From Ruditapes philippinarum (taxonomy: Eukaryota), in NCBI RefSeq assembly GCF_026571515.1, contig NW_026864055.1:124001-188000 (forward strand): DNA of 64,000 bases. The letters run 5' to 3'. Made by a program: the position numbers and the translations under genes. The notes under the pieces are model-generated. The model made no database searches, was not told the DNA's origin, and was given only the letters and a program-made list of their open reading frames with translations. Position 1 is the stretch's first letter; every line of letters starts with the position of its first letter. Of this stretch, positions 2,081 through 36,712 are shown piece by piece.

Positions 2081-3484
2081 GTACAGAACGCGTCACGTAA
2101 ACTCCATTCTCAGCAAATTATGCTCACCGTTCTGAAATAAAAAAATATTCCACATAGTTATAATTGTCTTTTAGCTCCAAATGATTGTTATATCTCTTCA
2201 TTAAATCTGAAGTGCTCGCTTAAATAAGGCCGCTAAAATCACACAAGTTCTGTAATTATTTCGCTATTCAATAAAAACGTAAAAGTGTTGAAAAAGATCA
2301 AATGAAACTTGTTTCAGGTATATTGTTTCAAACATGTTGTCATGCAAACATATTTTTTTCTGCTCGTATCGTATAGCTTATCATAAGAACATATCTATGG
2401 ATAGATTCATTGTACTATAATCTTTTTGGAATAATTTTTTTTAAGATCCTATTTTCAAACACAAAAAATAACTGAAAATATGAACGCACAATCAAATTGT
2501 TGTTCTTGTGATGTGTATTCCATATTAGTCATATACCAAATAAGGTGACAACTAACATCTATCTACGTAAGTGTTATTTGAAGCTATAGCTAAATCATCC
2601 AGTTGTATATTTTTAGCTTCATGTACAGACTTTCTCGATAGATATCAGACGTTATAATTTTATATTTAGGAAAGTCAAAATAAGACCGATCAATATATAA
2701 GTCGTAAGATATATTTAAAAAACAGTGTATTCTTTTAAGTCTCTCTTACAATATAGTTTTGTAATAAGAAAAGCGTGTTTCCTTATGTTGCATTTTGTTA
2801 TCATATACGATGTACAAGTACAACTTTTTGCTGTACACGTGTTGATAATAAGACTAATTTTAAATAGAAAGTAACTAAATAAACGATTTAAAACAACGAA
2901 ATCCACATCCTGCTAAAATCAGTCTTTCATTTACAATTGCAAATTATTTACATAATGTCATATATGTAAAACAATGATATTTTCTTTACGGAAGTAAAGA
3001 CATTCTCGTCTTACTTTTACAATCTGTTTGTGGGAATTTTCAACATGAAATAAACCAAGACACTCCTTCGAGTTTATCAGAAATTATATGCATTAAGTAT
3101 GAAATGCTTATGTTTAAAGTTAAACCTTTACGAACGTCTAGGCTTCATATAAACAAATTAAAAGGTAATAAAGGAATGAGTTTTTTTACAGATGAAACAC
3201 CTGATGTGTTCCTTTTACATTTCTTAATTATTTTAGACAATTCAGTAGATTCGGGAAAAAAAGAAACTATGACTTTCCATTCAAATGATATTTAAAGACA
3301 AAACAAACACCTTTTAACATAACCTTGCCAAATGTTAGCTATGTTTTGTCGTAAAAGGTTGCGCAATGAACTGTGTGTAAACGTTAACATTCTAAAGTGC
3401 AATTGTTTTAATGTATTGATCAAACATTGTGGTGGTCTAAGTAAACAAAGGTTATTCCATTTAGTTAATCTACTTTTGCTTATC

Positions 3485-3690
3485 CATTTATCTCATTATG
3501 TTTATATTTTCACACCTATTCTAGTTGAACAAATCTTTGATTATTGTAAACAAATTTACTTATATTAAAGCTCAAATTGGATTGGGACATGGAATATTAC
3601 TGAAGCTGTCCGATATATATAACAAAATAAACGTATATCCTGTATGTATGTATTTGATAGTATTTACAGAAATCTCTTATGACTCGTGTT
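3485..3690 (+). mobile_element. Ancient non-LTR retrotransposon RT fragment within the tandem unit (also ~21810-22025 and ~30075-30280)
   Basis: The three copies together read LSHYVYIFTAILVEKIIDFCE..SDAQ..LYCVFV.F.KAFD.IYRNVLWL. This matches the LINE RT motifs FTSIL..RL / SDAQFGF / LYC.FVDF.KAFD. Confidence 0.65.
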
Positions 3691-34700: not shown

Positions 34701-36712
34701 AACTATATATGTTGCTTGAATATTTTTCTTTACAATTTTATTACAATTAATAAAAAAATACCATGTTGAAATTTGCATTTATATTCAATTTGTTACAAAG
34801 AGAAAGATTTATGTCTGTAATATAGAAACGTACATGTACATCTAAATACAAAAGGAACTTTATATATTTTTCATATTAATTGAAAATAAAGATATTACTT
34901 ACGAAAATAGTTCTATATCTATCTCTTTTTCCACATACTATTCTTTTATTATTCGATATATTGTTAAGAGCTGTTTTAGGAATACCATGAAACAAAATAT
35001 TTTCTCTCACATACTTCTTTCATACGAGCGCGAAGTATTCCATCTGACTGAATTCAATTTGAAAATCCAGTATCGCGTGTTCTCCGACACAAACTTCAAT
35101 AATTACCGGTAAATAGATAATAACACCAGCTGCTGTATACACGCTTTTATAATCATGTCTTCGGATTGTATAATATATCGATACAAGTCCTCCCTCGTTG
35201 TAGTAAACAATTTGTATTTTGGTCAGACAATATTTCAAACAATCTATTCTTACTGGAGTTGATTTTAAAAGTATTAAAATGCTTACATATACATGTATTT
35301 GCATGTAGCTATAAACAAAATATTTATAGGATAAGACGAAAGTTCATAAAATATCGGTTTTATGCAACAAGACGCTTAGCATTTTTGTGTGAGTAATGTC
35401 AGGCTGCACACACAACTGTCCACCCGCTTGGGCCAATAGCGAAAACAACGAATTTGTCATCCAGTGGTCGCTAGTTGCATCATCGAGCGAGGTGAAATGT
35501 CTCCATGACAACTGACATCAACTTGAATGGTCATGGTCATTTGTCTCTCACCTCCGCTTAAGAAACATCAATTGTGATTAGTGGCCGTCATTTGCGCAGA
35601 AATTGACATCAGAGACACACGATGACGTGAAGCAAATGTCGAAATATGAACAACATTGCAAACATAAAAACAAACATACATACTACTCACAAATGACAAG
35701 ACATTAAGCAAAAAATGAGGTTACACTCAGATAAACATTGACTTCGTTCATCAACACCACTAGATTGAAAAAAAACAACAACATATATCATGCCTGAAGT
35801 AGAGAGCTACAGAATGTATTCTTTTCTCATGCTAAAGACTTTTAAATTGCAAATGATTTTCACAATTCTAACGGTCTGTTTATTGAATACCGGAAATTAA
35901 AACTGCTGATACTGATTTAAAGGATATTAGAATTCTAATTAGCTGCTACAAACAGCAAAGCTGTTCGTCTAGTCACGCTCAAAAAGAAGTTATATTTTTA
36001 AGACTAATAGACTAATGTAAAATTCAATCTAGTATTATATAGATATCGGGACAAAAGAAAGTTAAAATTTTAAAATAAAAACTACGCGGATTCAGGTCTC
36101 TCTTTTAAAATTTACCAATGTGAAAGCATTTAGTTGTTCTTGTTGTTCTTGCACGCCCTGCTCTATATCCGGAATAAGTATCTAGAACCATAAGTTTGAA
36201 TTTCTATTTGTCTTTTCTTATACGGGCAATTTTTCTAGACTGCTTATTGGCAACCAAAAAAAAAGAACACCAGAAAATGCATCATTACCATGTGAAAATA
36301 TTCATATTGTGCTTCCATTTTGATTGTTAATTATCACGTACAATGTAGTTATGTCACCTTTGTTGTACATGCTGTTCTTAAAGATTCTTTTTTCGGATGA
36401 GTCGTTTTTATTTTCATTTAAGTGTCAGTTATAAACAATATATTCTTAATAAAATAAGATACACTAGGTCATCACAGAAAGGCGGCGTTAAATGAGCATA
36501 ACATATTTTCATCATGCACATTTCTCTATAAGATATTTCGTTTTTTTATAAATAATTCTTAAAGCTAAGTCGCTCCCATCTAAAATGGTCTTTGGTTAAT
36601 GTCAAAATACAAATTGATATCGGAAACAAATATACGCACGCAAATAACAAATAATGTTCTCCGCATTGAATAAAAAATTGTATTTACTTACTGCATTGTA
36701 CAAATAAATCAA
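28797..36712. repeat. ~8 kb tandem duplication, unit 4 (ends ~550 bp short of a full unit)
   Basis: Colinear. Homology stops after tgcattgtacaaataaatcaat at ~36712. Confidence 0.93.
30318..31035 (+). mobile_element. HINE-type non-autonomous element
   Basis: 5' perfect hairpin ccctgcggtct-gg-agaccgcaggg, 3' subterminal accgcagg (31013-31020), internal 21-bp direct repeat catggaggagca(c/t)gtga. Inserted in the T-run of gaggttatttcacc, which is empty in units 1 and 3. Confidence 0.8.

Follow-up and report, generated by a model that had tools for sequence, protein, structure and literature searches.

Directly upstream of the start-codon exon of a knottin-like gene in the clam Ruditapes philippinarum, four large units are arrayed in tandem, and the locus raises the question of whether they act as repeated promoters and first exons of that gene or are inert intronic DNA, two readings put forward in a preliminary description of the sequence. 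We analyzed a 64,000-nucleotide stretch (NCBI RefSeq contig NW_026864055.1, positions 124,001 to 188,000; hereafter the window), the assembly (G000), and RNA contigs and raw reads. A literature search, with subscription journals mostly outside its coverage, returned no paper on this locus.

A single-copy gene for a cysteine-rich protein

The gene, LOC132724289, lies on the minus strand, with coding exons at 2131–2011 and 958–573 that translate into a product of 151 amino acids identical to XP_060565105. The translation contains 17 cysteines, a predicted signal peptide and a hydrophobic tail, on which a guess at a GPI anchor could be based. Nine other homologs of the protein share 62–69% identity, the gene being conserved across bivalves, and the knottin-like six-cysteine spacing C-x6-C-x5-CC, which occurs twice, is invariant in all 10 homologs. 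Pfam family PF07740 scored 22 bits at residues 85–108 against a cut-off of 21, the structure predicted by AlphaFold was poor (pLDDT 56.7), and the ESM Atlas gave no more than an automatically named mollusc cluster of 57.

Exon 3 (573–958, minus strand) encodes the cysteine-rich modules, the hydrophobic C-terminus and the stop codon; its joint to exon 2 (958–2011) was present in runs X1 and X2, and an X2 contig spanned 1–958, with the 3' UTR extending beyond window position 1. Exon 2 (2011–2131, minus strand) holds the start ATG at 2080 and the predicted signal peptide, and is the constant exon, contigs of X1, X2, X4, X11 and X13 covering exactly 2011–2131. The acceptor earlier recognized ahead of it was confirmed as TTTCAG ending at 2132. 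It serves all observed forms and belongs to the 3' end of intron 1 (2132–2228, minus strand), which has no second copy in the window and stops at the breakpoint, 2229. Exons 2 and 3 are also single-copy within the window, and the assembly holds one distant paralog. This paralog (39–41% identity) is encoded on the same strand some 9 kb further downstream (L004:1074–1379; G000:C12542:115071–115379, minus strand); the first cysteines of module 1 are missing from its matched part, and no copy of the core described below was detectable nearby. The identical LOC132724289 protein is listed under four RefSeq accessions (XP_060565105/6/7/10); this is what UTR variants would produce, and it suggests that several mRNA models have a single coding sequence in common.

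A tandem array, probably from one founding duplication

The four-unit array at the 5' side of the gene is real, and its homology begins at 2227–2229, 98 bp from the acceptor, much as had been described (about 100 bp), and ends at 36714. Self-comparison of the window delimited four minus-strand units of 7.5–10.4 kb. Unit 1 (2229–10838) comprises an upstream block, here called P, a core, exon 1 and 5.8 kb of intron 1. Unit 2 (10839–18374) has its core at about 15577–15688 and its donor at 15421, and unit 3 (18375–28796) at about 26632–26743 and 26495, respectively; in unit 4 (28797–36714) the core lies at about 35033–35141, and block P is deleted in this haplotype. Pairwise identity between units is 81.4–87.6% over ungapped columns, and 72–90% by BLAST segment in the self-comparison. 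A search of all four units found no coding-exon copies inside them. Unit 3 also contains a 2.3-kb, LINE-like insertion with broken reverse-transcriptase frames (about 19058–21330), absent from the matching place on a second contig, C499.

Long matches to the unit were confined, in the assembly searched, to this contig and C499, with no dispersed copies; the unit is therefore not a dispersed element. The three inner junctions and the C499 junction break at one common point, where the intron end and the 5' edge of block P share a 4-bp microhomology, GCCT; this points to a single founding duplication, presumably mediated by this microhomology, and later expansion by unequal crossing-over. C499 carries a chimeric unit, which occupies the place of two window units and whose distal 4.3 kb is 93–97% identical to unit 3. 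This contig, which stops short of the gene, is probably the other haplotype and seems to have one unit fewer, so that unit copy number would vary.

First exons from several units are joined to exon 2

RNA evidence came from 7 of 24 runs: contigs of X1, X2, X4, X11 and X13, and raw runs X21 and X23, of which 4–6% was read. X1, X4, X11 and X13 represent four studies, and the RNA animals differ from the assembly animal. None of the runs with this stretch is recorded as RNA; the contig runs were taken as "RNA?", and they probably are RNA because canonical introns are spliced out. The comparison that resolved versions used 82% likeness over the stretch 1950–8660. The bar of 31 letters on both sides of a joint was reached by X11 record 9 only, the short sides of the other junction contigs being 28 (X1), 29 (X13), and 30 and about 19 (X4) letters.

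The 5' junction was readable in four of the five contig runs (X1, X4, X11 and X13), in every case at the donor type represented by 8052; the first joint seen was 2131–8053, with GT..AG ends. Three types of first exon were joined to exon 2, namely unit-1, unit-4 and unit-3-like. The non-coding first exon of unit 1 extends over at least 8053–8192 (minus strand; donor GTAAGT at 8052), read in X4 record 29 as 140 nt with 0 differences. The last 28 nt of exon 1 are identical in units 1 and 2, and the X1 joint 2131–8053, with 28 nt, could come from either. The non-coding first exon of unit 4, at minimum 34903–35002 (minus strand; donor GTAAGT at 34902), lies 32.8 kb from the acceptor and was found in an X13 loose end and in X4 record 30. 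The 29 letters that precede exon 2 in X13 match 34903–34931 with 0 mismatches, as against 3 for unit 3, while the variants of X4 record 30 match unit 4 exactly over 33 nt, the other units being at edit distance 3–11. X4 holds both the unit-1 form (depth 9.3) and the unit-4 form (depth 10), each a letter-for-letter match to the corresponding unit of the assembly where checked. In X11 record 9, an exon end of 38 nt that has, like the C499 unit, 3 differences relative to unit 1 is joined to a 102-nt optional exon and then to exon 2. The place homologous to this optional non-coding exon of another allele is 22299–22415 (minus strand; 3' end inferred): an 18-nt piece matches 22398–22415 with 1 mismatch, the exon being homologous to unit-3/C499-type intron, and a 19-nt piece from the other end had no match at up to 3 mismatches.

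The forms shown differ between runs (unit 1 or 2 in X1, unit 4 in X13, both in X4), with the proviso that contigs drop rare forms. The window's own unit-3 exon, set apart from that of unit 1 by 5 differences, did not appear in RNA contigs; in the X2 contig, exon 2 is preceded by 27 letters. Raw runs X21 and X23, with a depth of about 1–7 on the exons, had no joint among those listed and are too shallow to weigh.

All four units retain the used donor, GTAAGT (8052, 15421, 26495 and 34902), and contigs join it to acceptor 2131. The preliminary description had named other donors, GTAAG(T/C), at 10255–10260, 17826–17831, 28185–28190 and 36686–36691, together with upstream CRE-like motifs. All of these are present, the TGACGT/ACGTCA motifs (10517, 10556, 18090 and 28501) each within 1 bp of the place given; the donors in use, however, lie 1.7–2.4 kb further downstream. 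Donors 10260, 17831, 28190 and 36691 occurred in no joint or loose end among those listed, 28190 and 36691 being outside the compared stretches, so that loose ends at 2131 were the one form in which they could surface. Each of the four units has two conserved GTAAGY sites, the 10260 type and the 8052 type, and spliced RNA was seen at the latter only. With 29 GTAAGY sites on the minus strand of the window against 26.3 expected, and 32 TGACGT half-sites against 20.4, these motifs alone carry no weight, and they recur in each unit because the units are duplicates. The proposal of repeated promoters and non-coding first exons spliced to one constant coding part is thus supported by RNA, with the correction that the named donors are not those used, and its counterpart, that the array is inert intronic DNA, is rejected.

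Four intronic contigs, three from X13 and one from X1, have no matching assembled unit (best 3/12, 1/5, 2/4 and 6/9 of the listed variants), which implies that further haplotypes or unit types exist. Assignment of intronic contigs to units by the listed variants failed for all four multi-variant contigs and was rejected. Equal difference counts (X1 record 3 with unit 2; X13 record 18 with unit 4) were set aside, the second being contradicted by the variant list. X13 also has two overlapping intron-end contigs, one of which reaches the single-copy acceptor segment, whereas the other does not. In one X4 contig (2131–2133), exon 2 runs into 86 nt that end in a pyrimidine run and TAG on the gene strand; these 86 nt had no match in the window or in G000, a single short hit equalling the control count, and could represent the intron end of a different haplotype or an additional first exon.

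A conserved core and an upstream block

The core of unit 1 (8199–8298, minus strand), a putative promoter or start region, is identical in 94 of 100 columns across the four units, that is, 94% four-way identity against an ungapped-column background of 71% (median 71). The best of 2000 column shuffles, which ignore local rate variation, reached 91%, and the next best real windows 86%. Among units 1–3, identity is 98.2% in the core, 75.7% in exon 1, 78.4% in the intron and 78.9% overall; the transcribed exon 1 directly downstream of the core is at background. The core holds the palindromes TTACCGGTAA and CAGCTG, which we take to resemble Grainyhead and E-box sites. We infer that selection maintains the cores and that the sequences of exon and intron are left to drift; gene conversion could homogenize the cores.

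The unit-1 core (8208) is without the 12 bp that hold an initiator-like TCAGTC in units 2–4, and the unit-1 exon is transcribed nonetheless. Units 1 and 2 instead have TATAAAAG in common (8190 and 15568); it was rejected as a promoter, being present in units 1 and 2 only, and the X4 unit-1 contig starts at 8192, upstream of TATAAAAG.

Block P of unit 1 (10261–10838, minus strand) contains the CRE-like half-sites and is followed by the donor 10260, at which no splicing was seen. Its three-way identity in units 1–3 is 88.1%, rising to 93.6% in the CRE-bearing zone (10480–10580), compared with 78.9% overall. The block that bears the CRE-like motifs is thus conserved and is probably an enhancer upstream of the promoter; it is lost from the window's unit 4.

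An older tandem duplication, with a period near 19 kb and 70–81% identity, extends from 37.4 to 76 kb, to the contig end (window 37405–64000, L005 and L006), and C499 has three or more such older units of about 19 kb with a different make-up. Repeat fragments aside, nothing in the young units but the core and block P can be aligned to these older duplicates. Core copy X (38337–38520, minus strand; aligned 38389–38478) is 72–83% identical to the unit cores and core copy Y (58798–58928, minus strand; aligned 58839–58928) 79–83%, each followed by a donor-like GTGAGT; an older copy of block P (54270–56220, minus strand), broken by repeat insertions, is 66–82% identical. C499 has three more old core copies. 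A GTRAGT site follows 7 of the 10 aligned cores and is perhaps the ancestral donor. The old P copy also contains a recent 600-bp direct duplication (54344–55569; 95%), a 352-bp inverted repeat of 96% identity joins 57339–57690 with 58169–58520, and at 47466–48213 four 170-bp repeats precede a GGAC/AGAC microsatellite, an arrangement that resembles bivalve Helentron-type non-autonomous elements.

Probable alternative promoters in cis

Taken together, the results show an array of four tandem copies of the 5' end of the gene, and its units are probably alternative promoters used in cis, whose non-coding first exons are spliced to acceptor 2131 to give the same 151-residue protein. Transcription would start in or just after each core of about 100 bp, giving a non-coding exon of at least 100–140 nt, the cap-proximal donor would be spliced to the acceptor at 2132, and block P would act as an enhancer. 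No pyrimidine-rich AG is common to the four units within 420 nt upstream of the donors, and the exon-1 copies further downstream would be passed over as intron because they have no good acceptor.

The doubt over whether the forms are used in cis or reflect alleles stems from the RNA, which comes from animals other than the assembly's. The exon-1 versions might be alleles of haplotypes that differ in the acceptor-adjacent unit, the distal units being silent here. Alleles are favored by the different unit make-up of C499, with its chimeric unit, by intronic RNA contigs showing unit types absent from the assembly, and by the reportedly great divergence of bivalve haplotypes. We nevertheless consider this unlikely, since the two forms in X4 match units 1 and 4 of the assembly, the unit-4 and C499 exon types are distal in both assembled contigs, and distal cores are as well conserved as the proximal one; in X13, moreover, the unit-4 exon occurs together with an acceptor-proximal intron contig that aligns to unit 1 with 0 gaps and to every other assembled unit end with at least 1. 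Rather improbable, too, is a role of block P with donor 10260 as an extra upstream first exon spliced into the core, the exon at 8053 then being internal in some transcripts. Although the donor is kept in four units, the conserved block P persists in older copies, and units 1–3 have a weak AG near 8329, no joint or loose end among those listed supports such an exon, GTAAGY frequency is at chance, the older P copies end before this donor, and the exon type of unit 4, which has neither P nor the weak AG, is still expressed.

Two further readings concern the core and the array themselves. Very high local conservation, and two indels that are multiples of three (a 12-bp deletion in unit 1 and a 3-bp insertion in C499), might mark the core as a repeated non-coding RNA or a small coding exon rather than a promoter. 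Rfam gave 0 matches in the window, however, folding z-scores were −1.07 to +1.26 in four of four tests, the long frame that units 3 and 4 have on the minus strand is interrupted by TAG in units 1 and 2, one C499 copy has a 13-bp deletion, and the core lies directly 5' of a transcribed exon; we hold this reading to be very improbable. That the array is an assembly artefact of strung haplotypes, or a tandem array of transposable elements, is barely credible: the assembly is fragmented and includes a probable haplotig, but the units differ by 12–19%, whereas the allelic-looking part of C499 is 93–97% identical to unit 3, the same tandem junction occurs independently on C499, and dispersed unit copies are absent.

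For alternative promoters used in cis, the effect is likely to be on the amount, place or timing of expression and not on protein sequence. In the last 140 nt of exon 1 plus exon 2, units 1–4 have 4, 7, 4 and 5 upstream ATGs, respectively, and all those lying in the exon-1 part stop before the start ATG; speculatively, their differing number could alter translation. A wider version, in which six cores from two duplication rounds form a promoter battery over 57 kb, with haplotype-variable copy number, cores under selection and units specialized by tissue or condition, is tentative, and we think it rather doubtful. If true, clams would tune one invariant surface knottin via promoter choice and promoter copy number.

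In this RNA-supported mollusc case, a gene gains several promoters by copying its own 5' end, and its protein remains encoded once. The four copies, old and distinguishable, combine a neutral background with a sharply conserved core and mark out a bivalve promoter element without cross-species data. With this array one can also test whether dosage or a division of expression accounts for the retention of duplicated promoters, and whether clams harbor hidden structural variation in promoter copy number.

Comparison with known systems

The preliminary description had likened the array to the protocadherin (Pcdh) and UGT1 clusters, with non-coding exons. Vertebrate Pcdh, UGT1 and GCNT2 have tandem variable first exons, each with a promoter, that are spliced to constant exons and that code for most of the protein and diversify it; NOS1 and the glucocorticoid receptor are placed in the same variable-first-exon group (PMC1885805). 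The clam locus has the layout in common, while protein diversification belongs to the vertebrate clusters only: the variable exons of the clam supply no distinct N-terminal parts, since the start ATG sits in exon 2, and the likeness holds for layout alone. The first exons of NOS1 and the glucocorticoid receptor are non-coding and mostly unrelated to each other.

In the clam, homologous copies of the 5' end stand in tandem upstream of single-copy downstream exons, and more than one exon-1 copy is spliced to one exon 2, as read from short overhangs. Drosophila melanogaster hydra is a young gene with nine tandem copies of exon 1 (nine codons) with promoters, at least four of them alternative starts and most flanked by DINE-1; unequal crossing-over was proposed, and length varies among lines (PMC1904467). 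The clam resembles hydra in its tandem first-exon copies with putative promoters and in the unequal crossing-over proposed for both, but its exon 1 is non-coding, its unit of about 8 kb includes nearly the whole intron, the gene is conserved in bivalves, and a short core is conserved. In Arabis alpina PEP1, the promoter, exon 1 and part of intron 1 are tandemly duplicated and both exon-1 copies are spliced to one exon 2; the two copies, with a coding exon 1 (MADS box) and highly diverged upstream sequences, are differentially expressed, and one accession is without one copy (PMC3527215). The clam units, likewise tandem 5'-end copies that carry exon 1 together with part of intron 1, have first exons that are spliced to a shared exon 2, but the units number four, with two older cores, and have a non-coding exon and a conserved core. 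The underlying principle is already known from hydra and PEP1, and among the systems compared the clam locus is closest to these two.
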